A DNA stretch of 63,929 nucleotides from Chloroflexia bacterium (GCA_034433695.1 DAOUAK010000160.1:1-63929); one strand, 5' to 3'; positions 468 to 39,679 are shown, counted from the stretch's first letter. Notes: generated from the letters alone by a model not told the origin. Made by a program: numbers and translations.

Positions 468-523
468 CCCGCTTGTGTCGTCGGCCCGGGAATGTCCCTG
501 TACTTCGCCCGAAAGGAAACCCG

Positions 524-10614: not shown

Positions 10615-10622
10615 GAGGATTC

Positions 10623-23600: not shown

Positions 23601-23650
23601 GGCGTGCTTCCTCCTGGCACGCGCACGTCACCCGGCCATAGGAGATTACG

Positions 23651-23735
23651 TTGACACTTGTATACTACAGGTAACCAAACCCTAACAAACCATTAACCCT
23701 CCCTTGCAGTGCCCTTAACTTCCTCCTGTTATGAT
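23651..23735 (+). promoter_or_regulatory. Pho-box-like array (TAAC cores phased at 11 bp) plus -10 TATGAT upstream of pstS
   Basis: Hexamers TTGACA (23651), TATACT (23661), TAACCA (23672), TAACAA (23683), TAACCC (23694), TGCAGT (23705) and TAACTT (23716) are spaced 10-11 bp apart. The last box ends 9 nt before TATGAT (23730-23735). Confidence 0.5.
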
Positions 23736-23773
23736 GCAGACGTAGACCGTCAAAAACTAAGGAGGTGAAAGCT

Positions 23774-24781
23774 ATGTCTCAACGGCTACGTCTGCTCATG
23801 CTACTGATGGCCGTCCTGATGTTGCTGGGGGCCTGCACGCCCCTAGCGACTCCCGTTGGAACCGTAGAGGGCACCATCCTGGTGGATGGCTCCAGCACCG
23901 TGGCCCCCATCACGATGGCTGTCGCCGAAGAGTTCCAGAAACTCTACCCGGATGTGCGCGTTCCCGTGGGTATCTCCGGTACTGGCGGCGGCTTCAAGAA
24001 GTTCTGCCCCGGCGAAACCGATATCTCCGACGCCTCCCGCCCCATCAAGGCTTCCGAGATAGAACTGTGCCAGCAGAATGGGGTGGAGTTCATCGAACTC
24101 CCCGTGGCCTTTGACGGCCTGGCCGTCCTGGTCAACCCGCAGAACGACTTCGTGGACTGCCTGACGGTGGAGGAACTGAAGAAAATCTGGGCGCCGGAAG
24201 CGGAGGGCCGGATCACCAATTGGAGCCAGGTCCGCCCCGGATTCCCGGACCGTCCGCTCACCCTCTACGGCCCCGGGGTGGACTCCGGCACATACGATTA
24301 CTTCACCGAGGCCATTGTGGGGAAAGAGGGTGCCAGCCGGGGAGACTTTCTGCCCAGCGAGGACGACAACGTCCTGGTGCAGGGGGTTAGCGGTGACCCC
24401 AACGCGCTGGGGTTCTTCGGTCTGGCCTATTACGAAGAGAACAAAGACAAACTCAAGCTGGTCGCGATCGATGCGGGTCAGGGTTGCATCCTGCCCACTA
24501 TGGAAACGGTGAGCAAAGGCGTGTATCAGCCTCTCTCCCGCCCCCTCTTCATCTACGTCAACCGGGACCGGGCGGTCTCCAAAGACGAGATTGACTTCTT
24601 CGTGCGGTTCTATCTCCAGAACGCCAAGAAACTGGTACCCGATGTGGGCTACATCCCGCTGACCGACGAAATCTACGCCCTGGCCCTCCAGCGCTACGAG
24701 AAGCGCATCACCGGCTCCGTCTTCGAAGGAGGCTCCCAGGTCGGGGTCTCCCTGGCGGACCTGCTCAAGAAAGAGCAGTAA
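23774..24781 (+). CDS. pstS: phosphate ABC transporter substrate-binding lipoprotein PstS
   Basis: ATG at 23774 lies 8 nt after AAGGAGG. Lipobox [13 protein letters not shown] and [10 protein letters not shown] are typical of PstS. Confidence 0.9.
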
Positions 24782-24847
24782 TCGGCGATGGGCGACCGGC
24801 GCGGTGCGCCCTGTGGGGTGTGCCGCGCCGGTCCTCTGGAGGTGTGG

Positions 24848-25759
24848 ATGCCATCCGGCGTGTTCCGTTCCGCAGTCCGCCGTCGGAAAACCGAGGAGTA
24901 TGTCGTCCGGGGGGTGATGTTCCTCTTTGCTCTTGTCTCGGTCGTTACCACCCTGGGCATCATCTACATCCTGCTGCAGGAGACCGTCTTCTTTTTCCGG
25001 GAAGTTTCCCCCGCCCGGTTCTTTCTGGACACCCGCTGGACGCCGCTCTTTGTCTCCCAGCGGTTCGGTATCTGGCCGCTGGTCAACGGGACGCTGCTGG
25101 TAGCCGCCGGTGCGATGCTGGTGGCGCTCCCACTGGGATTGCTGGCGGCGATCTATATGAGCGAGTACGCCGGCGAACGGATGCGCCGTATCCTGAAACC
25201 GTTTCTGGAGATCCTGGCCGGTATCCCGACCGTCGTCTACGGCTACTTTGCCCTCACCTTCATCACGCCGATCCTGCGCACCATCTTCCCGGAGACCCAG
25301 GTGTTCAACGCCGCCAGCGCGGCCATCGCGATAGGATTTATGGTCCTGCCGATGATCGCCTCCCTCTCCGAGGACGCCCTCTACGCGGTGCCCAACTCCC
25401 TGCGCGAGGCCGCCTATGCCCTGGGCGCCACCCGATGGGAAGTCGCCACGCAGGTTGTGCTACCGGCGGCCCTTTCGGGCATCGCCGCCGCCTTCATCCT
25501 GGCCGTCTCCCGCGCCGTCGGCGAGACGATGATTGTCGCCATCGCCGCCGGGCAACAGCCCCAACTGACCCTCAACCCCCTGGAGTCCATTGAGACGATG
25601 ACCGCCTACATCGTCCAGGTCAGCCTGGGTGATACCCCCCATCAGAGTCTCGCCTACAAGACCATCTTCGCCGTCGGTATGCTCCTCTTCCTGATGACCC
25701 TGGGGATGAACATCGCCAGTTACTACCTGACCCGGCGCTTCCGGGAGGTGTACGAATGA
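24848..25759 (+). CDS. pstC: phosphate ABC transporter permease PstC
   Basis: ATG at 24848 has GGAGG 5 nt upstream; the ORF-track start at 24788 lacks an RBS. Six TM segments with an EAA-type loop ([15 protein letters not shown]). Confidence 0.85.
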
Positions 25760-26625
25760 GCGCTCCCATTTTTGAACCGAACCTGCCCTGTCGGAGAAGG
25801 GCCGGATGGGTTTGGAAAATCGTCGCGCTGACGGCTGTCCTGCTGGGGATTGCCATGCTGCTGACCCTGCTGATACGGGTGTTTGTGGACGGTCTGCCCT
25901 ACCTGCGGCCGGAACTGTTCACCAACTTCCCGTCCCGCTTCCCGGACAAGGCCGGATTGCGGTCGGCGCTCCAGGGCTCCATCTGGCTGATGGTGCTGAC
26001 AGCGCTTCTCTCCTTCCCGCTGGGCGTCGGGGCGGGGATTTATCTGGAAGAGTTCGCGCCCCAAAACCGGTTGACCCGTTTCATTGAGATTAACGTCGCC
26101 AATCTGGCCGGCGTGCCGTCCATTATCTACGGTCTGCTGGGGTTGGGGTTGTTTGTCCGCGGCCTGGAATTGGGGCGCAGTTTGCTGGCCGGCGTGCTGA
26201 CGATGACCCTGGTCATCCTGCCGGTCATCATCGTCTCCACGCGCGAGGCGTTGCGGGCCGTCCCGCCCTCTATTCGCGAGGCCGCGCTGGCCCTGGGGGG
26301 CAGCCGCTGGGAAATGGTGCGAGACCACGTCCTGGTCTACAGCATGGGTGGCATCCTGACGGGGATGATCCTGGCCCTCTCCCGCGCCATCGGCGAGACC
26401 GCCCCGCTCATCACCATCGGCGCGCTGACATACATCGCCTTTGACCTGCGCGGCCCGATGGATATGTTCACCGTCCTTCCCATCCAGATATTCAACTGGA
26501 TCTCCATGCCCCAGCCGGCGTTCCGCCAACTGGCCGCGGCAGGAATCATCGTTCTGCTGGCTGTGCTCCTTTCCATGAACGCGCTCGCCATCTGGCTGCG
26601 CAACCGACTACAGAAGCGGTGGTAA
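25756..26625 (+). CDS. pstA: phosphate ABC transporter permease PstA
   Basis: ATGA overlap with pstC. The loop [17 protein letters not shown] is typical of PstA. Confidence 0.9.
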
Positions 26626-26628
26626 TCC

Positions 26629-27408
26629 ATGGAGCAAGCGCTGGAAATCCGAAACCTGCGCGTCTACTACGGCGATTTTCTGGCCATCCAAGATGTCTAT
26701 CTGACCATCCCGCGCCGCCAGATCACGGCCGTTATCGGCCCCTCCGGCGTGGGAAAGAGCACCCTCCTGCGGGCGATCAACCGGATGAACGAACTGGTTC
26801 CAACCTGCCGTACTGAGGGGGAGATCATTTTTGAGGGACGAAACATCTACGACCCGCGGGTGGACCCGGTGGAAATTCGGCGGCGGATCGGGATGGTCTT
26901 CCAGAAGCCCAACCCGTTCCCCAAGTCGATCTACGAAAATGTCGCCTGGGGGCTGCGCATCAACGGTTTCCGGGGGAACAAGGCGCAGATGGATGAGGCG
27001 GTGGAGCGGGCGCTGCGCGCGGCCACGCTATGGGACGAGGTCAAGGACAAACTCCACCAGAGCGGCCTTTCCCTGTCCGGAGGACAACAACAACGGCTAT
27101 GCATCGCGCGCGCCCTCGCCGTCGAGCCCGAGGTCATCCTTCTGGATGAGCCGGCTTCGGCGCTGGACCCGATCTCCACGTTCAGGATTGAGGAACTGAT
27201 GCGGGAACTCAAAAGTCGCTATACCCTAATCATCGTTACCCACAATATGCAGCAGGCAGCGCGTGTATCGGATTACACCGCGATGATGACGGTTGTGGAA
27301 GAGGGTTGCCGGGCCGGCACGATCATCGAGTTCGACCGGACGAAAGCGATCTTTACCAACCCGAAGAACCGACTGACCGAGGGTTACATCACAGGGCGAT
27401 ATGGGTAA
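26629..27408 (+). CDS. pstB: phosphate ABC transporter ATP-binding protein PstB
   Basis: Walker [10 protein letters not shown], signature [15 protein letters not shown], Walker B ILLDEP. Confidence 0.95.
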
Positions 27409-27420
27409 GCACGGGAGGCA

Positions 27421-28110
27421 ATGGCGATGTTTCGGAAGACCTTCGAGACGGAGCTGGAGCGACTGAAGGATGAAGTGCTCTGGCTCGGGAGCCTGGTCGC
27501 TCAGGCGATCTTGGACGCGGTGGAAGCACTGCAAAAGCACGACCTGGATACCTCTAGGGGTGTCTTGGCGATGGACAGCCAGATCAACGCCAAGCGTTTC
27601 GAGATCGAGAACCGGGTGATCACGTTGATGGCCACACAGCAGCCGATGGCGTACGACCTCCGACTGCTTGCTTCTATTTTCGAGATCGCGAGCGAACTGG
27701 AGCGGATAGGCGATTATGCCAAAGGCGTTGCTCGTGTCAGCCTCCGTATAGGGGACCAGCCGTTGCTCAAGCCGCCCCATGACCTGGCGCAGATGGCCCA
27801 GAAGGCAACGGACATGCTTCATCGTGCCTTGAGGGCCTTTGCTCAAGATGACGTGGAAGCGGCGCGCATTATTCCCCTGCAAGACGACGAGGTAGATATC
27901 CTCTACGACCGGGTATACGGTGAGTTAATGGCACACGTCATCCGGGATCCCCGGTTGATCGCACAGGCAAACTGGCTGCTGTGGGTTGCGCACAATCTGG
28001 AGCGTGTCGGAGATCGCGTTACCAACCTCTGCGAGCGGATTCTCTACACCGTAACCGGCGAGATGACGGAACTGGACACGAGCGACGACGAGTTCCGCCG
28101 ATGGTTGTAA
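27421..28110 (+). CDS. phoU: phosphate signalling complex protein PhoU
   Basis: GGGAGG RBS. Two PhoU repeats with ELERIGDYA and NLERVGDRVTN motifs. Confidence 0.9.
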   Translation: MAMFRKTFETELERLKDEVLWLGSLVAQAILDAVEALQKHDLDTSRGVLAMDSQINAKRFEIENRVITLMATQQPMAYDLRLLASIFEIASELERIGDYAKGVARVSLRIGDQPLLKPPHDLAQMAQKATDMLHRALRAFAQDDVEAARIIPLQDDEVDILYDRVYGELMAHVIRDPRLIAQANWLLWVAHNLERVGDRVTNLCERILYTVTGEMTELDTSDDEFRRWL

Positions 28111-28398
28111 CGCTCTCATTTCGCATGCCTGAAGAAGGGGCAACCGTCTGGTCGCCCTTCCCGTTCTCTGGGCCGTGGCCCTCGGCCCGGTCTGCTCCTC
28201 GCCGGTAGCCATCCGCAGGCAGGGGGGATAAGCGTGCCTTGTCCATAAAGGCCCATTGCCGGAATCGGGCATCTCCCGGCTACCTTCCCACCGGGCCTGC
28301 GTTTCCCCTCCATGACGCCCGCAGCATGGGTGTGCCTGGGGGCGGGGGCAGAGGATATCCTTACATAAATCCATAAAGGCGGAGGCCCCGGAAAAATG

Positions 28399-28427
28399 TT
28401 GCGCTGAAGACAAAAGTGTGCTATACT
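28399..28427 (+). promoter_or_regulatory. strong promoter for the seven-gene operon (TTGCGC-17-TGcTATACT)
   Basis: TTGCGC at 28399-28404, 17-nt spacer, TGc + TATACT at 28419-28427. GTAGGAGGTAGG RBS precedes ATG 28451. Confidence 0.5.
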
Positions 28428-28450
28428 GGGAGCAGTAGGAGGTAGGTCAT

Positions 28451-28753
28451 ATGCCCCTTTATACCCAGGGCGAAATGAAAGGCCTGGATGTAGAGGCAGC
28501 GGCGGCCCGGTTGGTCGAAACCGGATGGGCCGGGCCAACTTACCTTTTGCTCCAAAGCCTCCGCCCCTTGTCTTTCCTTGGGGGACAGGGCTTGCTCTTT
28601 TTGCAGCCCTTCCTCCCGTTTGCCCGGGCGCGTTCGGCGGTAAGCAGGCTGGCCGAACTGCTTTCCGACCGTTCCTACCTGGAAGCCCTGCTGTCGGCTC
28701 TGGAGGCCCGATTGCGCTCCGGAAACATGCAGGGACAGGAGGGGAAGCGATGA
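28451..28753 (+). CDS. hypothetical small protein (operon gene 1; one hydrophobic segment)
   Basis: Good RBS. 100 aa with the hydrophobic stretch PTYLLLQSLRPLSFLGGQGLLFLQPFLPF. Its stop overlaps the next start (ATGA). Confidence 0.6.
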   Translation: MPLYTQGEMKGLDVEAAAARLVETGWAGPTYLLLQSLRPLSFLGGQGLLFLQPFLPFARARSAVSRLAELLSDRSYLEALLSALEARLRSGNMQGQEGKR

Positions 28754-29559
28754 CGTTACGTTTCGGAGGTGCGACCGTCCTGGCCGGGCTGCTCCTGCTC
28801 CTTTTCTGTCTCCTTTTCTACTTCTTCTGGGTGCTCTGGCAGCGGCGCGGCCGGCTGGCCGATATCGTGTTGCGTCGCCTGCGGCCGGTCGAGGTACTGC
28901 GCTCCTTCCTGCATCGGGCCGCTGAGATGGGCGATGGGGTTCACCTTTCGCCCGGGCGGGGAGCGATCCACGATCCGGGCACCATCGCCGAAACGATGGC
29001 CGGCCTGGATGTCCTGCAGGCGGCGGCGAAGGAGGCCCTGGCAGTAGGCGTTCCGGTGCGGGCAACGGCCAACGATTCCCTGGTCAATACCGTGGTGGAG
29101 AACCGTCTGGGACGAGCCTGGCTGGCGGCCGGCCGGCCGGAGGTGGAGGTCCGGGGCGAACTCCTGGCCCAGCAGGATCGGGTGGCCTACACGGCCGGCG
29201 TTGTGGACCTCCTGGGCCGGCCCGAGGTCCAGGGCAATGTGATGCTGGGTGCCCTGGGGGAAGAAGTGCTCCTGATGGGCGAGGTCGGAGCCCATCAGAC
29301 CCGGTTTCAGGTAGTCGGCGCGGCACGGCCGGCTGCGGCCACCTTTTTGCCGCTCCTGACGGATGATTATCTCCTGGGAGAAGAACTCTACGCGGCCGGG
29401 GCCTATCTGGAACCCCGTCCGGAGCGCATCGTCAGCCTGATGGCCCAGGATGGCATCCGGATGCTCCTGCTGGGCCTGATCTTGCTGGGCACGATTCTGG
29501 CGACGGCAGGTGTACTGGAAGGTATCCTGGGGCCGCTTTTCCGGGGGATTGTGCCATAG
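28750..29559 (+). CDS. hypothetical bitopic membrane protein (operon gene 2)
   Basis: ATG at 28750. N-terminal TM ATVLAGLLLLLFCLLFYFFWVLW, a soluble middle of about 200 aa, and C-terminal TM IRMLLLGLILLGTILATAGVL. Confidence 0.7.
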   Translation: MTLRFGGATVLAGLLLLLFCLLFYFFWVLWQRRGRLADIVLRRLRPVEVLRSFLHRAAEMGDGVHLSPGRGAIHDPGTIAETMAGLDVLQAAAKEALAVGVPVRATANDSLVNTVVENRLGRAWLAAGRPEVEVRGELLAQQDRVAYTAGVVDLLGRPEVQGNVMLGALGEEVLLMGEVGAHQTRFQVVGAARPAAATFLPLLTDDYLLGEELYAAGAYLEPRPERIVSLMAQDGIRMLLLGLILLGTILATAGVLEGILGPLFRGIVP

Positions 29560-29659
29560 GGCCGTTGCACGATTTAGCCGCAGATACTCGGAAATAAGTC
29601 CGCGCTTGGGTATACCGGCTGCCACAGATGCCGGGGCTTGAAAATCGAGGGGCCGGCCG

Positions 29660-30301
29660 ATGCTCAAAAGAATTGTCACGGTGATCGTTCCCTGGGTTCT
29701 GGCCTCTACCGTAGGGCTTCTGGTCCTGCTGCACTACTTTGTCTCTATTCCTGGGCTGGACCTGGTCTTCAACGGCCTGGTCGAGTGGGCGACGATCATT
29801 GCCGCCTTCGGTCTCCTTCTGGGTCTGGTCAATGTGGCCCGGGTACACGGAAAACGGGTGGTGCAGCGGGAGAAGGACTGGCCCTACAGCCTGGTGTTGA
29901 TTCTTTCGGCTCTGGCAGTGCTGGTGCTGGGCCTCTTGCCCGGTTCCATCGGCAGCGGAAGTCGTTGGGTACAATGGGTCTTTCACTACGTCCTGGAACC
30001 TTTGTCGACCACCTTCTTTTCTCTCCTGGCCTTTTTCCTGGCCTCGGCCTTTTTCCGCTCCCTGCGGTTGCGCAACCTGGAAGCCGTTCTGGTTACCGTA
30101 ACGGCGGCGATTGTCCTTTTGGGTCAGGTGCCGCTCCGGTTACCCTGGCCTTTTCTGGAGCCGATTGCCCGTTTCCAGGAGTGGTTGCTGGAAGTGCCGG
30201 CCATGGCCGGGATACGGGCGCTCTTGCTGGGGGCCGGCCTCGGAGCGATGGCCACTGCCATACGGGTGATCCTGGGTGTGGATCGCCCCTATACGGAATA
30301 G
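29660..30301 (+). CDS. hypothetical polytopic membrane protein, ~6 TM, 213 aa (operon gene 3)
   Basis: ATG at 29660. Six hydrophobic segments judged by eye. No recognised family motif. Confidence 0.7.
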   Translation: MLKRIVTVIVPWVLASTVGLLVLLHYFVSIPGLDLVFNGLVEWATIIAAFGLLLGLVNVARVHGKRVVQREKDWPYSLVLILSALAVLVLGLLPGSIGSGSRWVQWVFHYVLEPLSTTFFSLLAFFLASAFFRSLRLRNLEAVLVTVTAAIVLLGQVPLRLPWPFLEPIARFQEWLLEVPAMAGIRALLLGAGLGAMATAIRVILGVDRPYTE

Positions 30302-30350
30302 CGGGTAACGTGTCCGGAGACGAAGGACCCGGACGCGGGAGGATCGAGCG

Positions 30351-32390
30351 GTGATACTCTGCCCAAACTGCCGTGCACCCAATCCGGACTCTTTCCGGTT
30401 CTGCGGGCGCTGTGGTAAACCGTTGCGCGAAGAAAAGGCCGAAGAACTCCCCAAGGGCGAACCGGTCCCTTCCTGGCTTCGGGAACTGGGCCAGGGGCTG
30501 GAAGCCGGTCCGGAGCCGGCCCCGCGACGGGAAAAAGCCCCAGAGGAGGAGGCGGGTCTTCCGCCGTGGCTGGCGGAGGCGCCGGCCGAGGCCCCGGCGG
30601 AGGAGGCGGGTCTTCCGCCCTGGCTGGCGGAGGCGCCGGCCGAGGCTGCGGTGGAGGAGGCGGGTCTTCCGCCCTGGCTGGCGGAGGTGCCGGCCGGAGC
30701 CCCGGTAGGGGAAGTGCCGGCCGAGGAAGCAGCCGGCCTGGTAGGTGAAGAGGAACTGGAACTGCCGCCATGGCTGGCGGAGGCCGTTCCCGAGGCCCCG
30801 GTGGAGGAGACGCCGGCCGGAGTCCCTGTGGCGGAGGTGCCGGTTGAGGAGGAACTTCCTCCGTGGCTGGCGGAGGAGGCGGCCGAGGCCCCGGTGGAGG
30901 AGATGCCGGCCGGAGTCCCTGTGGCGGAGGTGCCGGTTGAGGAGGAACTTCCGTGGCTGGCGGGGGCGCCGGCCGAGGCCGAGGCTGTGGAGGCCCCTGT
31001 AGAGGCGATACCGGAGGAGGAACTTTATGCCCTGCCGGTAACTCCGGAGGAAGAGGCGGCGCTCCCGGAGTGGGCCCGAGCGCTCAAGCCGGTGGAAGAA
31101 GAGGCGGCTTCGACGCCGTTTCTGGAAGGGGTGGAGTTGCCCGAGTGGCTACGGGTGGAGGAGCGACCGGCTGAAGAAGCCGTCGAAGTTCCGGCACCGG
31201 AACTGGCCTGGCTGGAACGGCTGGCCGGCGAAGAGGAGGAAGAGGTTCCCACGCTCGCCGCCGTCGAGCGCCTGCCGCGGCCACCTTTGCCTCCGCCGTC
31301 CCTGGCCCGCCGGCAGGCGGCAGAACTTTTTGCCGCTCTGGTGGCCACCCCGGAGCCGGAGAGGCGGCCGTTGGAGAGACGGGCCCCTTCCTTCTCCCGA
31401 CGACTGCTCCACTGGCTGGCGGAGCGCTGGCCCATGCTGGCCCTGGCACTCCTGATGATCGTGATGCTTGCGGCCAACGTCTCTCTGCCCGGTGTACGTG
31501 CGGCAGTTTCGGAGGCCGATCAGGCCTTTGCTACGGTGGAGCAGGCCATCGCCTGGTCCCCGGAGGCCGGGGAGAATCCCCGGCCGGCACTGGTAGCTTT
31601 CGACTGGGATCTCCACCGGGTGGCAGAGATGCGGCCGTTGGCGCTGGTCGTGATTCGCCATCTTCTGAAGTGGAAGTCGCCCGTGATCGCGGTCAGCACG
31701 ACTTTCCAGGGAAGCCAGTTAGCACAAGAGGTGCTGGAGACCGCGCTCCTGGAAGTTTTGTCCAGGGGAAATCTCGGGGAACCGGGAACCGGGCAAGTTT
31801 TCCAGGCCGTCGAACAACTGGTAGCCCAGGGCTATGGGGAATTTCGGGACTATACCTACGGCGACCACTTTGTCAACCTGGGGCTACGCACCGGGGCGGA
31901 GAGCGCCCTCCGCCTGCTGGCCGACCAGCCGCTGGCCTGGACCTTCCCGCGGGACTTTTTCCGAGGTCTCCCTTCGGCCGATTACCCTCTGCTTCAGCAG
32001 GTTCCATCGCTGAAGGACGTTTCTCTTCTGGTGGTCATGGTGGGGGAGGAGGACCGTGCCCTGGGCTGGTTGGAGCAGGTGATCAGCCGGTATCCGAACA
32101 AACCCTGTCTGCTGGTCATTCCGACCGAACTGGGGCCGCTGGTACAGCCGTACCGTCAGGCCTGGGCCGGAGCACCTGCCCTCCTGCGGGGGGTGGCCGC
32201 CGCTGCCCGGTACGAGGCTTTGCTCCGGGAGCGGGAACTGGTTTCCCTGAGCCCGGAACTTTCGGTGGAACGGCGCCTGAGCCTGCTTACGGTAGCCCAA
32301 TTCGGGCTGGTCATCCTGATCCTGGCAGGAAATCTGGCCCATCTGGGCCGATGGCTGGGTCGCCTGCGGAAAGGGCCGCCCCAGGTATAG
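30351..32390 (+). CDS. zinc-ribbon protein with acidic LPxWL repeat array, TM segment and large C-terminal domain (operon gene 4)
   Basis: GTG at 30351 with GGGAGG upstream. CPNCRAPNP...FCGRCG zinc ribbon, about 9-10 copies of (L/V)P(P/E/S)WL(A/R)E, TM WPMLALALLMIVMLAANV, and terminal TM LLTVAQFGLVILILAGNLA. Confidence 0.75.
   Translation: MILCPNCRAPNPDSFRFCGRCGKPLREEKAEELPKGEPVPSWLRELGQGLEAGPEPAPRREKAPEEEAGLPPWLAEAPAEAPAEEAGLPPWLAEAPAEAAVEEAGLPPWLAEVPAGAPVGEVPAEEAAGLVGEEELELPPWLAEAVPEAPVEETPAGVPVAEVPVEEELPPWLAEEAAEAPVEEMPAGVPVAEVPVEEELPWLAGAPAEAEAVEAPVEAIPEEELYALPVTPEEEAALPEWARALKPVEEEAASTPFLEGVELPEWLRVEERPAEEAVEVPAPELAWLERLAGEEEEEVPTLAAVERLPRPPLPPPSLARRQAAELFAALVATPEPERRPLERRAPSFSRRLLHWLAERWPMLALALLMIVMLAANVSLPGVRAAVSEADQAFATVEQAIAWSPEAGENPRPALVAFDWDLHRVAEMRPLALVVIRHLLKWKSPVIAVSTTFQGSQLAQEVLETALLEVLSRGNLGEPGTGQVFQAVEQLVAQGYGEFRDYTYGDHFVNLGLRTGAESALRLLADQPLAWTFPRDFFRGLPSADYPLLQQVPSLKDVSLLVVMVGEEDRALGWLEQVISRYPNKPCLLVIPTELGPLVQPYRQAWAGAPALLRGVAAAARYEALLRERELVSLSPELSVERRLSLLTVAQFGLVILILAGNLAHLGRWLGRLRKGPPQV
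30545..30706 (+). repeat. three tandem 54-bp coding repeats (EEAGLPPWLAEAPAEAPA units)
   Basis: GGAGGAGGC unit starts at 30545, 30599 and 30653 (period exactly 54 nt). The copies are near-identical. Confidence 0.9.
30792..30974 (+). repeat. two tandem ~93/90-bp coding repeats (EAPVEE(T/M)PAGVPVAEVPVEEELP(P)WLAE units)
   Basis: GAGGCCCCGGTGGAGGAGA starts at 30792 and 30885. The second copy lacks 3 nt. Confidence 0.9.
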
Positions 32391-32405
32391 AAAGGTGGCG
32401 GAGAG

Positions 32406-33047
32406 ATGGAACAGGTCCTTGGCCTCTGGGTAGCGGCACTTCTCACCCTGATGGTCTACAGTTTCCTGATCGCCGACAACCCTCTTTTTCGTTTGGCCGA
32501 GCATCTGCTGGTGGGGACGGCGCTGGGGTACGCTGCGCTGCTGGTCCTGGAGCGGGTGCTTCTGCCGAGTTTGGGCATGGCGCTGGCCGGCTCTTCGGTC
32601 GCGGACCCTCTGACCCGTCTGATGACTGCGCTGGGCATCGTATGGGGCGTCCTGCTCTGGTTCTGGCTGGCGCGGCCGGTACGGTGGCTGTCCTCCTGGC
32701 CTCTGGCCATTGTCTTTGGGGTGGGGTCTGCCCTAGCCATCGGGGGAATCCTGATGGGCACTCTCCTCCCCCAGGTGCGGGCGAGCATGTTACCCCTGAG
32801 CGGGCCCGGTCTGCTGGATAACCTCATCATTGTGGTGGTTGTGCTGGCCGGCCTCACCTACTTTTTCTTCGCCATCCGTCCGGATCGCCCGGTAGGGCGC
32901 TTGATCGGACGAATAGCCCAACTGGGCCGCTGGTTTCTGCTGGTGGCCCTGGGTTCGTTCCTCGGCACCCGGGCCCTTTCGCTTCTGAATGCCCTGGCCG
33001 AGCGTTTCGAGTTTCTGGCCCGCTGGTTGCGAACGATTTTGCCCTGA
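32406..33047 (+). CDS. hypothetical polytopic membrane protein, ~6 TM, 213 aa (operon gene 5)
   Basis: ATG at 32406, 15 nt after gene 4. Six hydrophobic segments, and the same length as gene 3. Confidence 0.7.
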   Translation: MEQVLGLWVAALLTLMVYSFLIADNPLFRLAEHLLVGTALGYAALLVLERVLLPSLGMALAGSSVADPLTRLMTALGIVWGVLLWFWLARPVRWLSSWPLAIVFGVGSALAIGGILMGTLLPQVRASMLPLSGPGLLDNLIIVVVVLAGLTYFFFAIRPDRPVGRLIGRIAQLGRWFLLVALGSFLGTRALSLLNALAERFEFLARWLRTILP

Positions 33048-33059
33048 GGAGGCTCCCGG

Positions 33060-34958
33060 ATGGATGCCGATGCCGATTTTCGGGCCGTCCTGGTGGCGGA
33101 TTGCGGAATCGAACGTACCCGCGTATCGCTGGTGGATGTCGTCGAGGAGAACGAGTACCGCCTGGTGGCCCAGTGCGAAGTTCCCTCGACGGTGGACCCT
33201 CCTCTGACCAATGTGACCGTTGCCGTTCGGCAGGCCATTACTGAACTGGAGGGCTGTACCGGACGACGGCTCCTGGAGGACGGCCGATTGCGTATCCCCC
33301 AGGGGAGGGACGGGCAAGGGGTAGATGCTCTTGTGGCTACCTGTAGTGCCGGCGGCCCCCTGCCGATCCTGGTACTGGCCGTTACCGCCGACATCACCGC
33401 ACAGAGTGCCATACGTGCCCTGGAGGGGACCTATGCCGTGCCCATCCGGGTGGTAACGATGGAGGAGGTTCTGCGGAACGATCCCCTGGCCGAGGCGACC
33501 CAGGGAGATGAGGTCTGGTGGAAAGTTATCGAGAGGCTTCATCCGGGTGGCGTGCTTCTGGTGGGTGGGGTGGATGGTGGACATATCGCCCCGGTGCTGG
33601 CTCTGGCCCGGCTTCTGGCCGAAGCCCTGCCTCCACGCCCCACGAGGCTGGAGCAGGAACTTCCCCTTCCTCCTCTGCCCGTGATCTATGCCGGCAACCG
33701 GCGGGCGCAGGAGGCGGTACGGAATTATTTGGCCGAACAGGTAGACCTGCGTTTGGCCGAGAACGTCCGTCCCGCAATACGAGAGGAAAACCTGTTGCCG
33801 GCCCGGCAGGAAATTGCGCGGCTGTACGAGGAGCAAATCCTCCGGCATCTGCCGGGCTATGAGGAACTGGCCTCCTGGGTCCAAAGCCCGGTGCAAATGC
33901 CCTACCTGGGGCTCCAGTTAGTGGCCCGTTTCCTGGCCGCCCATTACCGGCGTCGGGTTCTGGCCGTGGACCTGGGAAGTGCCTCCACGACGATGGTGTG
34001 GGCTGCCGGGGAAGAGTGCGGCCGGGTGGTATTGGGGCAATTCGGCCTGGGGTACGGGTTGGCCCGCCTTCTGGCCCGTCGGGGGGCCGGCCGCATTCGG
34101 CGATGGTTGCCTTTTCCCATTTCGGAGGAGGAGGTGCGGACCCGGGTGCTGAACCGCTATCTGCGGCCGCGCACCTTGCCCACGACGGTGGAGGACTTGA
34201 TCCTGCAACAGGCCCTGGCCCGGGAGGCGCTGGCCGGGGCCTGGGCCAAAGTGCAGGAGGAGGCCGGCCAGCCGGAGATGGTGGTGGCGACCGGCGGAGG
34301 GCTTGCCCGGATGCCGCGTCCTGTCCAGGCCGTGCTGGTCCTCCTGGATGCGCTTGCCCCCAGCGGCGAAAATCCGACCGGCCTGGTGGACCTCTACCTG
34401 GACCGCTCCTGCCTCCTTCCTTCAGTTGGAGCCCTCGCCACGTTGAATCCCGATGCCGCGGCCTGCGTCCTCCTGAGGGATGCCCTGTGGCATCTGGGCC
34501 CGTGCCTCGTTCCTCTGGGACGGGCGAAACCGGGCGCTCTGGCCCTCTCCCTGGAACTGGAATACGCCGGCGAGATGCGGCAGGAGGTCGAGGTACGCTG
34601 GGGGGATATAGTCCTGGTCCCTTTCCGTATGGGGGAGGAAGCGCACCTGACGGTGCGGCCGGCCCGGGGGGTCTACGTGGGCCAGGGCCGGCCGGGCGAG
34701 CAACTCACCACCCGGGGTGGGGAAATGATCCGCGGCGGTGCCCTGGGGCTGATCGTGGACGCCCGAGGCCGTCCGCTCCTCCTGCCCGAGGCCGAAGAGC
34801 AACGCCCGGAGTTGCTGCGGAAATGGTTGAGGCGGTGTGGGGCCTGTACGGAGGAAGAACTGGCCGAACTCCAACGTAAGCCGCCTGCGGAGACGTTGCC
34901 GGGCTCCGAAATGACGGTGGAAGAACCCCTGGCCGAATCCATAAGGAGTGCAGAGTGA
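33060..34958 (+). CDS. GlmL/MutL-type (glutamate-mutase-L-like) actin-fold (ASKHA) ATPase homologue with long C-terminal extension (operon gene 6)
   Basis: GAGGAGG RBS. The N-terminal phosphate-1-like strand VLVADCGIERTRVSLVD, LLVGGVDGGH (GlmL-type GGxDGG motif), PVIYAGNRRAQE and VVATGGGLA (adenosine-type GGG) are in the order expected for GlmL-like proteins. Confidence 0.7.
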   Translation: MDADADFRAVLVADCGIERTRVSLVDVVEENEYRLVAQCEVPSTVDPPLTNVTVAVRQAITELEGCTGRRLLEDGRLRIPQGRDGQGVDALVATCSAGGPLPILVLAVTADITAQSAIRALEGTYAVPIRVVTMEEVLRNDPLAEATQGDEVWWKVIERLHPGGVLLVGGVDGGHIAPVLALARLLAEALPPRPTRLEQELPLPPLPVIYAGNRRAQEAVRNYLAEQVDLRLAENVRPAIREENLLPARQEIARLYEEQILRHLPGYEELASWVQSPVQMPYLGLQLVARFLAAHYRRRVLAVDLGSASTTMVWAAGEECGRVVLGQFGLGYGLARLLARRGAGRIRRWLPFPISEEEVRTRVLNRYLRPRTLPTTVEDLILQQALAREALAGAWAKVQEEAGQPEMVVATGGGLARMPRPVQAVLVLLDALAPSGENPTGLVDLYLDRSCLLPSVGALATLNPDAAACVLLRDALWHLGPCLVPLGRAKPGALALSLELEYAGEMRQEVEVRWGDIVLVPFRMGEEAHLTVRPARGVYVGQGRPGEQLTTRGGEMIRGGALGLIVDARGRPLLLPEAEEQRPELLRKWLRRCGACTEEELAELQRKPPAETLPGSEMTVEEPLAESIRSAE

Positions 34959-36130
34959 CGGTTTACTATCCTACCTTCCAGCCTATGGTCAACCCGCTTA
35001 CGATGGTTACCCGGGTGCGGGAACTTCCCTATGCCGGGGAAGTGCTCGTGCGGGTGGGCAACCGGGTGGAACCGGACGAGGTGGTGGCCCGGACGCTTCT
35101 TCCATCCCGGGGCCGGAGGCTTCCGGTGGCCCGCCTCCTGGGGATACCGGAAAAAGACCTTCCTGCTGCCGTGCTCCTGGAAGACGGTGCCGAGGTCGAG
35201 GCCGGCGACATTTTGGTACGGGTGGGGCGGGTACGGCCGCGGGTCTTTCGTAGCCCGCTTTCCGGGACCCTCTCCACAGCCGAGGCCGCCCGGGGCTATC
35301 TGGTTATCACCCCACCGGCCCAGACCTTTGAACTCCGGGCCGTCCTCAAGGGCTTTGTCCTGGCCGTGGAGCCGTATCGCTCGGTGACCATCCAGTCCCC
35401 GGCGGCGGTGGTGCAGGGGGTCTTTGGCCTGGGTATGGAGCGGCACGGCGTCCTGCGCGTGGCGGTGACCTCGGCCGGCGATGAACTTTTGCCCGAGATG
35501 ATCGACGAGCGCTCCGCCCTGGCCATCCTTCTGGGAGGCGGACCGGTGAGTGCGGCAGCGCTGGAGCGGGCCATATCGTACCGGGTGCGGGGACTGGTGG
35601 TGGGCAGCATTCCGGTCGAGGAACTCGAGGCCTTCCTGGGTTATCGCGGCGATGCCGACTGGGAACGGGACGGTTGGGGCTTTCCTCCCGGCACCATGGG
35701 GCGCGACTTTCCCCTGACCCTGGTGGTGACCGAAGGGCTGGGGCGCCGGCCGATGTCCTCGCGAGCCTTTGAACTCCTGGCTTCTTACGACGGCCGGGAG
35801 GCGTTGATCGAGGGTCGGACCTGCCTGCACGGGACGGAAATGTACCGGCCGCAGGTTGTGGTACCCCTTCCCCGGGCCGATCTGGCCGAGATTCCCCCGG
35901 CGGAGGCGGCGGAGCACCTGGTTGTGGGTATGGAGGTCCGGTTGCTGGGCGAGGATTTCCTGGGGCAAATCGGTACGGTGGTGGCTTTCCCGCGGGGCCT
36001 TCGGGCCATGCCCTGTGGAGCACGTTACCGGGTGGCAGAGGTACGTCTGGAGACGGGTTCGGTGGTCACCGTTCCGCTGGAAAATCTGGAGGTGCTGGGG
36101 CCGGGAAAGGCCAAGCGAGTAGCCCGGTAG
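34955..36130 (+). CDS. hypothetical protein with barrel-sandwich (lipoyl/HlyD-like) N-terminal motifs and KOW-like C-terminus (operon gene 7)
   Basis: GTG at 34955 overlaps the gene 6 stop (GTGA). GEVLVRVGNRVEPDEVVA, VEAGDILVRV and SPLSGTL resemble hybrid-barrel motifs. The C-terminal VGMEVRLLGEDFLGQIGTVV...VPLENLEVL is KOW-like. Confidence 0.65.
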   Translation: MTVYYPTFQPMVNPLTMVTRVRELPYAGEVLVRVGNRVEPDEVVARTLLPSRGRRLPVARLLGIPEKDLPAAVLLEDGAEVEAGDILVRVGRVRPRVFRSPLSGTLSTAEAARGYLVITPPAQTFELRAVLKGFVLAVEPYRSVTIQSPAAVVQGVFGLGMERHGVLRVAVTSAGDELLPEMIDERSALAILLGGGPVSAAALERAISYRVRGLVVGSIPVEELEAFLGYRGDADWERDGWGFPPGTMGRDFPLTLVVTEGLGRRPMSSRAFELLASYDGREALIEGRTCLHGTEMYRPQVVVPLPRADLAEIPPAEAAEHLVVGMEVRLLGEDFLGQIGTVVAFPRGLRAMPCGARYRVAEVRLETGSVVTVPLENLEVLGPGKAKRVAR

Positions 36131-36192
36131 GACCTGGATTGGCGCGGGGCCGAAAAAGCGTTATCTTCAGTGTGTCGGGGCGGGCCGGGAAA

Positions 36193-37287
36193 TCATCTGC
36201 CGCCGGCCCTATTCGAGGGCTGTAAGGTGCGGATCATCCGGACAAAAGTGCGCACCAGTTCGGGATGAAAGGCTTTGCCGGCCTGCTGGAGCAGAAAGGA
36301 ACAGGCCTCGTCAATGCTCAGTCCCCGGTGGTAGGGCCGTTCGGTGGTCAAAGCGTCGAAGGCGTCGGCGATGGCCAGAATCTGCGCCCCCAGCGGGAAA
36401 CGGGGATCGCCGTAACGGAGGCCGTCGGGGTAGCCGGTTCCGTCGTAGCGCTCATGGTGGCGGAGGATCAGCGGAATCAGAGGTTCCAGGTACGGGATAC
36501 CGCTCAGAATGGAAGCCCCGACCAGGGGATGGGCCTCGACGATGGCCCGTTCCTGGGGCGTAAGCGGACCGGGTTTGAAGAGGATGGCCTCGCTGATGCC
36601 GATCTTGCCGATGTCGTGCAGAATGGCGGCGTAGCGGATGGTGTTCACTTCCTCTTCGCTTAGGCCCAGCGCTTCGGCCAGGGCCACGGACAGTTCGGTG
36701 ACCGCCTGGGAATGCCGGTGGGTGGTGGGGTCGCGGGCATCAATGGCCGAAGCCAGGGCGCGGATGGTGCTGGTATAACTTTCGGAGACGATCTGACCCA
36801 GCAGCCGGTTTTCGATGGCAAAACGGAGATGGTGATGGAACAGCCGGAGCACCTGAACGGGTTCCTGAGGCGGTGTCTGGTCGTAAAACGTGGTCAGAGC
36901 GGCCCGGAGGCTGGGTCTCAGGCCCAGGATTTGTCCTTCGTAGACCAGGGTGGTCAGGGCGATGGCCGGCCCGGGTTCGGGGAAGGGGGAATCGACCCGG
37001 ACGATGGATGGGGTGGGAGGGTTGATCCCTTCGGCCGGCGGAGGGAACGCTGCCAGCCGGGGGAGAAGGAGAGGGCCGAGGGGCAGAATCTCGGCGGAGC
37101 CATAGTACTCCGGGGGCTGGGATGGGGGAAGGTAAATGAGGAGGCTACCGTGAGTGGCGCAGCACCTTTCGGCCGCTTCGGCGATGGCCCGAAAGATTTC
37201 GGGCAACGGTGCCTTGCCGAGGATCAAGTCCCCGATGCGGTCGAGGCAGGAAAGCAAATGATTTTCCGGTTCGTCGAATCGGGCCAT
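36193..37287 (-). CDS. HD-GYP domain protein (putative cyclic-di-GMP phosphodiesterase) with uncharacterised N-terminal sensor domain
   Basis: ATG at 37287 (MARFDEPENH). AILHDIGKIG and HHERYDGTGYPDGL motifs. The upstream 275 codons of the 640-aa ORF-track entry are Pro/Gly/Arg-rich junk antisense to the next genes. Confidence 0.85.
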   Translation of the reverse strand: MARFDEPENHLLSCLDRIGDLILGKAPLPEIFRAIAEAAERCCATHGSLLIYLPPSQPPEYYGSAEILPLGPLLLPRLAAFPPPAEGINPPTPSIVRVDSPFPEPGPAIALTTLVYEGQILGLRPSLRAALTTFYDQTPPQEPVQVLRLFHHHLRFAIENRLLGQIVSESYTSTIRALASAIDARDPTTHRHSQAVTELSVALAEALGLSEEEVNTIRYAAILHDIGKIGISEAILFKPGPLTPQERAIVEAHPLVGASILSGIPYLEPLIPLILRHHERYDGTGYPDGLRYGDPRFPLGAQILAIADAFDALTTERPYHRGLSIDEACSFLLQQAGKAFHPELVRTFVRMIRTLQPSNRAGGR

Positions 37288-37376
37288 CTCTTTTCCCGGC
37301 CCAGGTTTGCCGGGGGCTGGAACCCCCGACCCTGGGCCGTGCCCATTATACCACAGGTCCGGCTGAGAAGAAAGCG

Positions 37377-38045
37377 ATGCGCGTAACCATCGTTTTTTCC
37401 AGAGGGAAGCCCTTGCGCTTCCTTTCGCACCTGGATATGATGCGGCTATGGGAACGGGCCCTGCGACGGGCCGGCCTGCCGCTGCGTTATTCCCAGGGCT
37501 ACCATCCCCATCCCCGTCTTTCCCTGGCTCTCCCCCTGGCCGTCGGCATGACGGCGGAGGCCGAGTGGATGGAGGTCGAATTCCTTTCGCCCGTCCCGAC
37601 GGAAACGATCCGGGAACGGCTGTCGCCCCAGTTGCCGGCCGGCCTCTCTCTGCAAGACATCCTGGAGACGCCTTCCGGTGCACCCTCGCTCCCCGCCCGG
37701 GTGCGGGGGAGCGAGATCGAGGTGGTGCTCCCCCAGCCCCCCCCATACGAGGAGGTTCGGGAACGGGTACGCCGTTTCCTGGAAGCCGAGGCCGTTCCGG
37801 TCGTAGAAACGCGGCAGGCCGGGTCTGGCCGCAGAAAGCGGCCTCGGGTAGTAGACCTGAGAAAGACGGTGGAGGCGATCGAAATCGGCCCCTGGAGCGC
37901 GGACCGGGGGATCCTGCGCCTTCGCCTGAAGGCATCGGGCCGGCCACTCCTCCTCCTGCAGGCCCTGGGCCTGGGGGGAGAGGCCGAAGGCAACCCACCC
38001 CTTCCCCATCGTCGGCGGTTGTTTCTGGCGGAGGTTTCCGGGTGA
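37377..38045 (+). CDS. radical-SAM-linked protein (DUF2344 / TIGR03936-like)
   Basis: ATG at 37377. The N-terminus MRVTIVFSRGKPLRFLSHLDMMRLWERALRRAGLPLRYSQGYHPHPRLSLALPLAVG is characteristic of this family. Confidence 0.75.
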   Translation: MRVTIVFSRGKPLRFLSHLDMMRLWERALRRAGLPLRYSQGYHPHPRLSLALPLAVGMTAEAEWMEVEFLSPVPTETIRERLSPQLPAGLSLQDILETPSGAPSLPARVRGSEIEVVLPQPPPYEEVRERVRRFLEAEAVPVVETRQAGSGRRKRPRVVDLRKTVEAIEIGPWSADRGILRLRLKASGRPLLLLQALGLGGEAEGNPPLPHRRRLFLAEVSG

Positions 38046-39679
38046 TGCTTACCGAAGGAAGGTCTCTCCCGAACGGAACGGCTCGTATCCTGGTTCTGGA
38101 CGACGAAGTGGCCATCTGCGAACTCTGCTCGCGTACTTTGCAGAAGTACGGCTATAGCGTGGCCACGACCACCAGTTCCCGACAGGCCCTGGAGATGCTC
38201 CGCCAGGAACCGTTTGATCTGTTGCTTCTGGATATCCGTATGCCCGAACTCGACGGATTGGAGGTGATGCGCCGGGTGCGGGAGTTTTCCCCCGACATTG
38301 CCATCGTGGTGATGACCGGCTATGCCTCGGTGGAGGCGGCCATCGAGGCCGTTCGGCAAGGTGCCTCCGATTTCCTCCAGAAGCCGTTTCGGTTGGATGA
38401 CCTGCGCCTGGCTGTGGTCAAGGCGCTGGGGAAACGCGACCTGAACCGGGAACAGGCCCGCTCGCGGGTCCTGATGCGCCTGGTGCGGGTGAGCGAAGAG
38501 ATGGCTTCTCTGCTGGAAGAAGACCTCCTGGTCCAGGTGGCCCTGCGTGCGGCGATGGAGGAGACCGGGGCCCGGCGGGGTTCGGTGATGCTCCATGAGC
38601 CGGGGCATAAAGTGCTCTATATATCGGGGGCCATGGGCCTGCCGTCAGAGGTGGGGCCGGGATATTCGGTGAGGCTGGATGAGGGGGTGGCCGGGCTGGT
38701 CTTCCAAAGCGAGGAGGCGCTCCTGGTGGAGGATGTGCGCACCGACCCTCGTCTGGCCGGGCTTGCCCTGCCCCATCGGGAACGTTACCGGAATCCCTCT
38801 TTTCTCTCCGTGCCGATCCGGGGCAGCGAACGCGTCCTGGGAGTGCTCAATTTAAGCGAGAAAAGCGGGGGAATGCCCTTTCGCCCCAGCGACCTGGAGG
38901 TGGCCGGCCTCCTGTGCAGCCAGTTGGCCGTCGCCCTGGAAAAAGTGCGCCTCTTCACCGAAATCCAGGAGTCGTACCGCCGGCTGCGGGAGGTGGACCG
39001 GTTGAAGAGCGAATTTCTCAGCATCGCCGCTCATGAACTGCGCACTCCGCTCTCCATCATCGTCGGCTACACCATGATGCTGAGGGACGAACTCCAGGGA
39101 CCGGCGCAGAGTTACCTGGAGGCGGTTCTGGATAGTGCCAACCAGCTGGTTCGCCTGGTGGACGATATGACCAACCTGCGCTACCTGGAGGCCCGCGAGG
39201 TGGGGCTTGTGGCCGTTCCGCTCCGCCTGCAGGACCTGGTGCCCGGCATCGTCGAGCATTACCGTCGGTTGGCCTGTGAGAAGCAGCAGGAAATCGCCTG
39301 TGACCTCCCCGCCGACCTGCCCCCGGTCCGGGCCGATGGGGAAAAGGTCGGGGTCATTTTGGGCAATCTTCTGAACAACGCCGTCACCTTTACCCCGGCC
39401 GGAGGGCGAATCGGCATCCGGGCAGAAGCGCAGGGAGACAAGGTGCTGGTGGCCGTGGAAGATACAGGTCGTGGCATCCCCCGAGAAGAGTGGGAACGCA
39501 TCTTTGAGCCTTTTTACCAGGTGGGCGATTCTCTTCGACGCGAACACGGAGGCATGGGATTGGGACTGGCGATCGCCCGCGAACTGGTTACGCTTCACGG
39601 CGGTTCGATTTGGGTCAAAAGCGAGGTGGGGCGGGGTAGCACCTTTTATTTTACCCTGCCCCGGGCAGAGACGGACTGA
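38045..39679 (+). CDS. hybrid receiver-GAF-histidine kinase
   Basis: ATG at 38045 overlaps the preceding stop (TGATG). Canonical receiver (LVLDDE, DLLLLDIRMPELDG, VVMTGY, QKPF), GAF-like (ARRGSVMLHE...FLSVPI), H-box AAHELRTPLS, and NLLNNAVTFT, DTGRGIP, GMGLGLAIA. Confidence 0.85.
   Translation: MLTEGRSLPNGTARILVLDDEVAICELCSRTLQKYGYSVATTTSSRQALEMLRQEPFDLLLLDIRMPELDGLEVMRRVREFSPDIAIVVMTGYASVEAAIEAVRQGASDFLQKPFRLDDLRLAVVKALGKRDLNREQARSRVLMRLVRVSEEMASLLEEDLLVQVALRAAMEETGARRGSVMLHEPGHKVLYISGAMGLPSEVGPGYSVRLDEGVAGLVFQSEEALLVEDVRTDPRLAGLALPHRERYRNPSFLSVPIRGSERVLGVLNLSEKSGGMPFRPSDLEVAGLLCSQLAVALEKVRLFTEIQESYRRLREVDRLKSEFLSIAAHELRTPLSIIVGYTMMLRDELQGPAQSYLEAVLDSANQLVRLVDDMTNLRYLEAREVGLVAVPLRLQDLVPGIVEHYRRLACEKQQEIACDLPADLPPVRADGEKVGVILGNLLNNAVTFTPAGGRIGIRAEAQGDKVLVAVEDTGRGIPREEWERIFEPFYQVGDSLRREHGGMGLGLAIARELVTLHGGSIWVKSEVGRGSTFYFTLPRAETD

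Follow-up and report, generated by a model that had tools for sequence, protein, structure and literature searches.

Relatives of GlmL, in the ASKHA superfamily, are linked to B12 enzymes. Elsewhere in the superfamily, DdrA-DdrB combines an ASKHA ATPase with a small alpha/beta partner, Hsp70 proteins have the order ASKHA domain, beta domain and helices, and PilM-PilN, FtsA-FtsZ/FtsN and GspL all follow one logic, that of an ASKHA protein with a bitopic partner and a short linear motif. Here we describe a tightly packed cluster of seven plus-strand genes, g1 to g7, at positions 28451-36130 of a 63,929-nt stretch of DNA from a Chloroflexia bacterium (GCA_034433695.1, DAOUAK010000160.1; the whole stretch analysed is called the window). 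The sixth gene encodes a GlmL-type ATPase, which would be, to our knowledge, the first such protein wired to a dedicated membrane complex and could thereby revise the role of the whole MutL/GlmL family. An earlier note on this DNA had proposed an actin-fold ATPase attached to a membrane complex outside the described systems, and the analysis supports this proposal, as profile, fold and literature searches name no pathway.

No characterised pathway was found for any of the seven proteins in Pfam, NCBIfam, PADLOC, the PDB (by sequence and by fold) or the literature, and the solved structures include no close relative of any of them. PADLOC defence models gave no match at E ≤ 0.01 for any of them. 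Five of the seven are without a consistent Pfam family beyond generic domains, namely the zinc ribbon of g4 and the barrel-sandwich and KOW domains of g7. The literature searched held no mention of DUF6754 or PF13941, the Pfam families matched by g2 and g6, and nothing relevant on GlmL or ASKHA proteins with a membrane complex. Because the tests for known systems fail and the literature search was empty, we rate the system, whose role is still putative, as outside every described kind.

The cluster consists of two modules, shown here to recur together in varied orders: module M (g2-g3-g4C-g5, g4C being the C-terminal part of g4) and module C (g1-g6-g7). Our favoured reading, to which we give a probability of about 40%, is that module C is an ATP-driven, shared cytoplasmic unit operating transporter-like membrane modules. 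Module C would dock on module M from the cytoplasmic side, perhaps aided in Chloroflexota by a multivalent array of LPxW[LM] motifs on the g4 N terminus, and ATP binding and hydrolysis by g6 would drive or gate conformational changes of the membrane complex. Since the M modules beside one g6-g7 pair can number two or three paralogues, and others stand alone, several M modules of differing specificity may share module C as the unit that energises or regulates them. It would then be analogous, not homologous, to the energy module of ECF transporters. These likewise have one cytoplasmic unit beside several paralogous membrane modules, but the resemblance is analogy only: the cluster has no P-loop ATPase and no homology to EcfT or S components, and the seven proteins gave no match to ABC_tran, BPD_transp or ECF families.

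A bolder form of this reading, which we put forward tentatively and with the odds against it, is that of a class of membrane machine not recognised before: g6, locked to g7, would power exchangeable four-subunit membrane modules, for example of a primary transporter or translocase, with tethering through LPxW[LM] motifs in Chloroflexota. Such a class would span a dozen phyla, for the most part uncultivated, and would be missing from the classical model organisms. Testable hypotheses that the system offers are the g6-g7 complex, the docking of LPxW[LM] peptides and the modularity of the membrane units.

The ATPase g6 and its partner g7

The 632-residue protein g6 (33060-34958) belongs both to the ASKHA superfamily and to the Pfam MutL family. 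It matches MutL (PF13941) with E=1e-63 and 216 bits (cut-off 27) over residues 10-471, corresponding to positions 1-446 of the 450 in the profile, and no other Pfam family at E ≤ 1; in particular, the MreB, FtsA, PilM and actin families are not matched. Its ASKHA core (33087-34472) contains phosphate-1, phosphate-2 and adenosine motifs. Among 63 g6 homologues, D14/G16/T20 and D304/G306/T310 (each DxGxxxT) and G412-G413 (GG) are invariant or nearly so. The AlphaFold2 model of g6 is confident, with a predicted local distance difference test score (pLDDT) of 90.5 and a predicted TM-score (pTM) of 0.90, and a Foldseek search of the PDB with this model gave 247 matches at E ≤ 1e-3, of which all 50 listed are ASKHA proteins. 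Judging from its motifs and model, g6 looks like an active ATPase. Beyond the MutL profile, which ends at residue 471, residues ~477-604 (34488-34871) make up an additional, subfamily-specific conserved region of about 130 amino acids, a beta domain with helices ending in a near-invariant DARGRP.

The GlmL/MutL-like ASKHA assignment made in the earlier note is thus borne out by profile, motifs and model. With GlmL, the accessory protein of glutamate mutase, and the GlmL-related Or-4 protein of ornithine fermentation, g6 shares the full match to the MutL profile and the order of the ASKHA motifs, but its scores lie below the cut-offs of the corresponding equivalogs (NF040745, 72.9 against 475; NF040744, 95.8 against 600; TIGR01319, 49 against 204), and it differs by the extra C-terminal beta domain with DARGRP. 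No adenosylcobalamin mutase gene (glmS/glmE, oraS/oraE) accompanies g6 within ~10 kb in the window, and no such family is conserved over 168 related loci; g6 is linked to g7 and the membrane module instead. The absence of glutamate mutase, dehydratase and lyase genes, also pointed out earlier, holds for ~10 kb around the cluster, and no B12-dependent mutase or lyase gene of any kind lies within that distance in the window. An identification of g6 as GlmL proper or Or-4 fails on score, gene context and architecture.

The family membership nevertheless suggests an alternative, in which g6 and g7 would be a two-subunit, ATP-dependent chaperone or reactivase of the GlmL or DdrA-DdrB type that services a membrane enzyme made of g2-g5, by assembling it, repairing it or exchanging a cofactor or subunit. 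Acidic residues of g2 and g4 would then be catalytic. This agrees with the Pfam family common to g6 and GlmL, with the presence of the reactivase DdrA (2d0o) among the structural matches, with the Hsp70-like domain order of g6 (ASKHA core, beta domain, helices), with g6 and g7 being one unit, and with the invariant Glu/Asp residues of the g2 and g4C domains. We consider it unlikely all the same: the cluster and its surroundings contain neither a cobalamin-binding motif nor a B12 enzyme, g6 falls far under the GlmL and Or-4 equivalog cut-offs, and the g2 and g4C domains match no enzyme family. Moreover, the likeness of g6 to DdrA and to Hsp70 proteins such as DnaK is generic (TM-scores 0.17-0.27), and g7, with its barrel-sandwich and KOW domains, is unlike DdrB.

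The closest folds to the g6 model are the hydantoinase A-type proteins N-methylhydantoinase (9h03), acetophenone carboxylase (5l9w) and acetone carboxylase (5svc/5m45), with E-values of 8e-11 to 1e-7 and TM-scores of only 0.26-0.35. LsrK, DnaK, PilM, FtsA, glycerol kinase and DdrA come next. As all TM-scores are low (0.2-0.35), g6 represents an ASKHA fold without a close solved relative, and sequence and profile searches likewise gave no PDB homologue. Of the earlier label of an actin fold, the ASKHA fold stands, whereas filament-forming actins are not prominent among the closest folds. By sequence family, g6 does not belong with such actins (MreB, ParM, FtsA, MamK): there is no family match, and FtsA and PilM appear only as generic folds (TMq 0.24-0.28).

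These closest folds raise the possibility of vectorial metabolism, with g6 as a small-molecule kinase or an ATP-dependent carboxylase or hydrolase that would trap or convert a solute coming from the membrane module, and with g7 as its partner, catalytic or regulatory. Besides the top three folds and the sugar and glycerol kinases behind them, a precomputed Hydantoinase_A match on two g6 homologues is consistent with such a role, and the glycine-rich loops and invariant TEGFG of g7 could bind phosphate or a ligand. The low TM-scores of the same three folds argue against it, as do the lack of a HyuB-type partner for g6, the absence of conserved metabolic genes nearby and the lack of a recognisable catalytic family in g7; from the hydantoinase A-type subunits g6 also differs in its C-terminal domain and gene context. 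We regard this role as quite unlikely.

The partner protein g7 (34955-36130, GTG start, 391 amino acids) is composed of a barrel-sandwich hybrid domain (residues ~11-120), a beta-rich segment, an alpha/beta domain (~190-304) containing the invariant TEGFG, and a KOW-like barrel (~325-382). The g7 protein of the window has no Pfam family above threshold and no RnfC_N match at E ≤ 1. Among 25 members of its family, RnfC_N was matched by 14 (best E 8e-7), Biotin_lipoyl by nine and NQRA_N by seven. By profile and by fold, the g7 C terminus resembles the KOW domains of Spt5, NusG and L24, so that both the barrel-sandwich motifs and the KOW-like end read from the DNA previously are recovered. The predicted model (pLDDT 85.9) gave only domains of KOW or Tudor size in Foldseek, with nothing in the PDB that matched either the entire chain or its middle domain, and the sole match in PDB sequence and profile searches was the KOW domain at the C terminus.

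By these profile matches in other family members, the g7 N terminus may be compared with the barrel-sandwich domain of RnfC and NqrA. In the NqrA structure an alpha/beta domain and then a small beta barrel come after this domain, an order that g7 may share. However, g7 has no Fe-S or flavin motifs, RnfC and NqrA are not among its top 50 Foldseek matches, Pfam scans of g2-g5 gave no Rnf/Nqr membrane family and no FMN-binding subunit, and conserved cysteines are absent from g3 and g5. An Rnf/Nqr-like redox pump, which the barrel-sandwich domain and the sizes of the subunits call to mind, was dropped on the lack of family matches, conserved cysteines and flavin motifs.

Very probably, g6 and g7 form one complex, because natural fusions of the two exist. 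In the fusion proteins P0233 (995 amino acids) and P0325 (1003 amino acids), the N-terminal ~590 residues align with the entire g6 (E=4e-87 and 3e-82, respectively), and the C-terminal parts are recognised by the g7 profile (E=3e-136 and 8e-97). At 49 of the 70 genome loci with room, g7 lies no more than 3 kb downstream of g6. We also noted a lone g7 homologue at 10001-11131 of a locus on a 4.8-Mb Planctomycetota-type contig (L087), where neither g6 nor a membrane module lies within 10 kb of it. At another locus, in a metagenome-assembled genome (MAG) labelled Clostridia (L084), two g6-g7 pairs flank a single g1 beside one membrane module. The first g7 copy there has an insertion of ~78 amino acids in the barrel-sandwich domain, and a g7 subfamily of ~450 amino acids with this insertion was also seen.

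Two modules in varied orders

The topology of g1-g5 was predicted from hydropathy and the positive-inside rule. Hydrophobic segments had been attributed to five products; those of g2, g3, g4 and g5 hold, whereas g1 (28451-28753, 100 amino acids) has a conserved, proline-containing and moderately hydrophobic stretch that gives no clear transmembrane helix. No Pfam family matches g1, which is encoded directly upstream of g2 in Chloroflexota or of g6 in other phyla. The g2 protein (28750-29559, 269 amino acids) matches DUF6754 (PF20539; E=4.8e-33, 114.8 bits, cut-off 27) and has a transmembrane helix at either end. Between them lies a conserved, alpha/beta-looking domain of ~200 amino acids, which by the positive-inside rule is probably cytoplasmic; no PDB sequence match to g2 was found. 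The proteins g3 (29660-30301) and g5 (32406-33047), of 213 amino acids each, are predicted to have about six transmembrane helices apiece. Neither belongs to a family, since per-member Pfam scans gave scattered chance matches only, and neither family has an invariant or near-invariant cysteine.

The largest protein, g4 (30351-32390, GTG start, 679 amino acids), is predicted to have 355 cytoplasmic residues, a transmembrane helix (residues 356-374), an external domain of ~270 amino acids and a second transmembrane helix (645-663). The part from the first helix to the second, g4C (31416-32339), with its alpha/beta-looking extracytoplasmic domain, is the sole part of g4 conserved outside Chloroflexota, where g4 measures only 270-290 amino acids. 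Per-member scans yielded no consistent Pfam match for g4C, and it has no PDB match. Invariant Glu/Asp residues occur in the domains of both g2 and g4C. Because hhalign comparison of family profiles detects no paralogy among g1, g2, g3, g4C, g5 and g7, neither g3/g5 nor g2/g4C is a duplicated pair. Predicted from sequence, module M would be a four-subunit integral membrane complex with ~16 transmembrane helices.

To follow g6 across genomes, one genome per species was scanned with the g6 C-terminal motif, and the subfamily was found in at least 580 species-level genomes. Their labels include Chloroflexia, Anaerolineae, Ktedonobacteria, Armatimonadota, Planctomycetota (including Brocadiales and Scalindua), Poribacteria, Cloacimonadota, Gemmatimonadota, a Clostridia MAG and a Bathyarchaeia MAG, and g7 homologues additionally carry the labels Zixibacteria, WOR-3 and Thermoplasmata. 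These labels are those of MAG records, the archaeal ones rest on MAG binning, and the neighbouring genes in the Bathyarchaeia-labelled locus (L083) are uninformative. An exhaustive profile search with g7 gave 1,200 clusters (50% identity) at E ≤ 1e-30 and 2,507 at E ≤ 1e-10. The carriers include ecologically important groups, namely anammox bacteria, Chloroflexota, Armatimonadota and Zixibacteria, and some are in culture, for example Oscillochloris, Thermogemmatispora and Ktedonobacter. In the Bathyarchaeia-labelled locus, ~4 kb separate the membrane module from a gene for a methyltransferase-type corrinoid protein, MtgC/MtbC-like (71-721, minus strand); the case stands by itself, and the proximity is probably a coincidence.

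Gene order was determined by iterated profile searches on fetched loci. Chloroflexia and Anaerolineae have the order g1-g2-g3-g4-g5-g6(-g7), anammox and other Planctomycetota as well as many metagenome contigs have g1-g6-g7-g2-g3-g4C-g5, and MAGs labelled Armatimonadota, Clostridia and Bathyarchaeia, one of each, show further permutations. When metagenomes were scanned with DUF6754 as anchor, the order g2-g3-g4C-g5 was kept at every locus with enough flank. About half of these loci have g1-g6-g7 directly upstream; at the others the module stands alone, forms an inverted pair or is repeated in two to three tandem copies behind one g6-g7 pair. The link between g6 and the membrane genes is accordingly conserved across several phyla, but one fixed seven-gene order is not: the two modules are rearranged.

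Tandem copies of module M, two to three behind one g6-g7 pair, were found at three loci (L088, L159 and L160), and at a fourth (L154) three copies follow a g7 that is cut by the contig end. At 11533-21128 of L088, from a Zixibacteria MAG, one g6-g7 pair is followed by three tandem four-gene membrane modules. The DUF6754 proteins of copies 1 and 2 at this locus are ~415 amino acids long, with an extra N-terminal transmembrane helix and a domain of ~130 amino acids.

It is highly improbable that the seven genes merely adjoin one another, or are transcribed separately, with no function in common. The 100-nt gap between g2 and g3 and the loci that carry g6 without the other genes would fit such a view, but co-occurrence of the genes across phyla persists through rearrangement, fusions join g6 with g7 and g4 with the repeat array, and the cluster has start/stop overlaps and a single conserved promoter.

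Several observations weigh against the reading of module C as an ATP-driven unit operating transporter-like M modules. At about 40% of the genome loci with room on both sides, no module M stands beside g6, and none is adjacent at any locus labelled Ktedonobacteria or Thermogemmatispora. An adjacent g7 is missing at some Chloroflexales loci. In per-member Pfam scans, g3 and g5 match no transporter family. GlmL proteins, the nearest members of the family, are thought to be chaperone-like rather than motors, and we know of no described transporter driven by an ASKHA ATPase. Finally, it is genomic context that points to a docking of C on M.

The LPxW[LM] repeat array of Chloroflexota

The cytoplasmic part of g4 begins with a zinc ribbon (CxxC...CxxC; 30357-30428), which matches Pfam Zn_Ribbon_1 with E=1.4e-6, above the cut-off. 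It is followed by an acidic, low-complexity repeat region (30465-31151) with eight [LMIV]PxW[LMIVA] motifs, five of which are LPPWL; 10,000 composition-preserving shuffles gave a mean of 0.14 motifs and a maximum of three. The repeats, of LPPWLAE type, are encoded by tandem DNA that makes up part of this region, one array having a 54-bp unit (30537-30705, 3.1 copies, 90% match) and a second a 93-bp unit (30758-31020, ~2.4 copies). Stop-to-stop open reading frames (ORFs) of g4 range from ~620 to 1,400 amino acids among relatives, and this wide difference in length suggests that the array expands and contracts.

The array is fused to g4 in Chloroflexia and Anaerolineae. At loci labelled Ktedonobacteria or Thermogemmatispora at which the upstream region is present, a zinc-ribbon protein of ~500 amino acids is encoded directly upstream of g6. 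These stand-alone proteins (L004, L006, L021, L024, L031, L036, L055, L075 and others) have six to nine LPxW[LM] motifs and no transmembrane helix, and nearly all end in a conserved amphipathic C terminus of the type KRGLFEAIRxWF. In the g4 of the window, the juxtamembrane segment SRRLLHWLAERW is similar to this C terminus. In a six-frame search of 88 loci (1.63 M residues), all 41 ORFs with at least three motifs were g4, the gene upstream of g6 or, once, g6. Whether it is fused to g4 or comes from the gene just ahead of g6, the array links the g4 membrane protein to the g6/g7 genes, and it is a Chloroflexota-specific part of the system.

Short cytoplasmic motifs of this kind bring to mind a scaffold or cytoskeletal role, in which g6 would be a platform like PilM, FtsA or GspL that possibly polymerises and to which short peptides on the cytoplasmic side of bitopic proteins bind. 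The peptides would be the LPxW[LM] motifs and the juxtamembrane helix of g4, the assembly would organise an envelope, cell-shape or division complex, and ATP would serve as a switch. Two peptide complexes, PilM with PilN1-12 and FtsA with FtsN 1-29, are among the fold matches of g6, and the conserved amphipathic helix of the stand-alone repeat proteins also speaks for such a role. The LPxW[LM]R motif may in addition resemble the FtsZ C-terminal peptide (IPxFLR) that binds FtsA. Yet g6 matches no MreB, FtsA, PilM or actin Pfam family, and its best folds are hydantoinase/carboxylase-type enzymes. As the array occurs in Chloroflexota only, it cannot be a general mechanism. Tandem paralogous membrane modules fit a single structural machine poorly, and the very different envelopes of the carriers, which possibly include archaea, argue against a wall-specific role. 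We find this scaffold role distinctly improbable.

Compared with PilM, FtsA and GspL, moreover, the cluster has no family-level sequence match and no pilus, secretion or division genes. A type IV pilus or type II secretion platform was rejected as an identity for the system, there being no PilN/PilO/GspM, secretin or pilin families in the cluster or its conserved neighbours.

Predicted transcription unit and flanking genes

The earlier note had described seven same-strand genes with ATGA and GTGA overlaps and gaps of 12-100 nt, and the coordinates and homologue N termini agree. The start codons of all seven genes are consistent with the N termini of homologues. The ATGA overlap of g1 and g2 at 28750 was read in the sequence, and the GTGA overlap of g6 and g7 at 34955 follows from the coordinates; the other gaps measure 100 nt (g2-g3), 49, 15 and 12 nt in this order.

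Upstream of g1 lies a promoter-like site (28399-28427, plus strand) composed of TTGCGC (28399-28404), a 17-nt spacer and an extended -10 element, TATACT (28422-28427) preceded by TGc. AGGAGG is found ~8 nt ahead of the g1 ATG. The claim of a promoter is upheld as to the site, but not as to its being near-consensus, because TTGCGC agrees with the E. coli -35 consensus TTGACA at only three of six positions and a consensus-based promoter scanner did not report it. The DNA preceding g1 was aligned for the window and for three relatives, with g6 identities of ~86%, 84% and 68%. The core TTGCG-17-TGnTATACT is invariant in sequence and spacer length in all four, whereas the DNA 5' of the -35 element is unrelated; an invariant core amid unrelated upstream DNA argues that the site functions as a promoter. 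Conservation thus provides good evidence for this predicted promoter. A scan of 27900-36500 against Rfam gave no riboswitch or other element, the sole match being a chance miRNA (E=0.16).

All three relatives have the seven genes and the downstream synteny of the window. Upstream, two of them have enolase and one has HEPN/NTase, against pst/phoU in the window. As the upstream neighbours vary while the seven genes and the promoter core stay, the transcription unit appears to start at g1.

In the window, the genes upstream of the cluster are cysS, a sensor kinase, pstS, pstC, pstA, pstB and phoU. Those from the PhoR-like sensor kinase to phoU make up a complete phosphate-uptake locus (21819-28110) immediately 5' of the cluster, with pstSCAB as a unit distinct from it. 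A functional tie of the cluster to the pst/phoU genes was considered and dropped, given the other upstream neighbours in close relatives; the adjacency looks incidental because it is not kept there. Neighbour-ORF clustering over the 168 loci showed no further gene family conserved beside the cluster across lineages, only lineage-specific synteny. Individual neighbours seen at single loci and not conserved across loci are a PspA/IM30 gene a few genes downstream in an Anaerolineae-type locus (L003, 16225-16920) and secD/secF downstream in a close relative (L169, 14714-17105).

Downstream, the cluster ends convergently against an HD-GYP gene, as had been noted: a minus-strand gene (36193-37251) with an HD_5/HD match and the motif HHERYDGTGYP ends 62 nt past g7. 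The mechanical ORF for this gene (36193-38115, minus strand, 640 amino acids) extends far 5' of the probable start at ~37251 and overlaps a plus-strand DUF2344 gene (37209-38045). Its long, low-complexity N-terminal extension is probably not translated.

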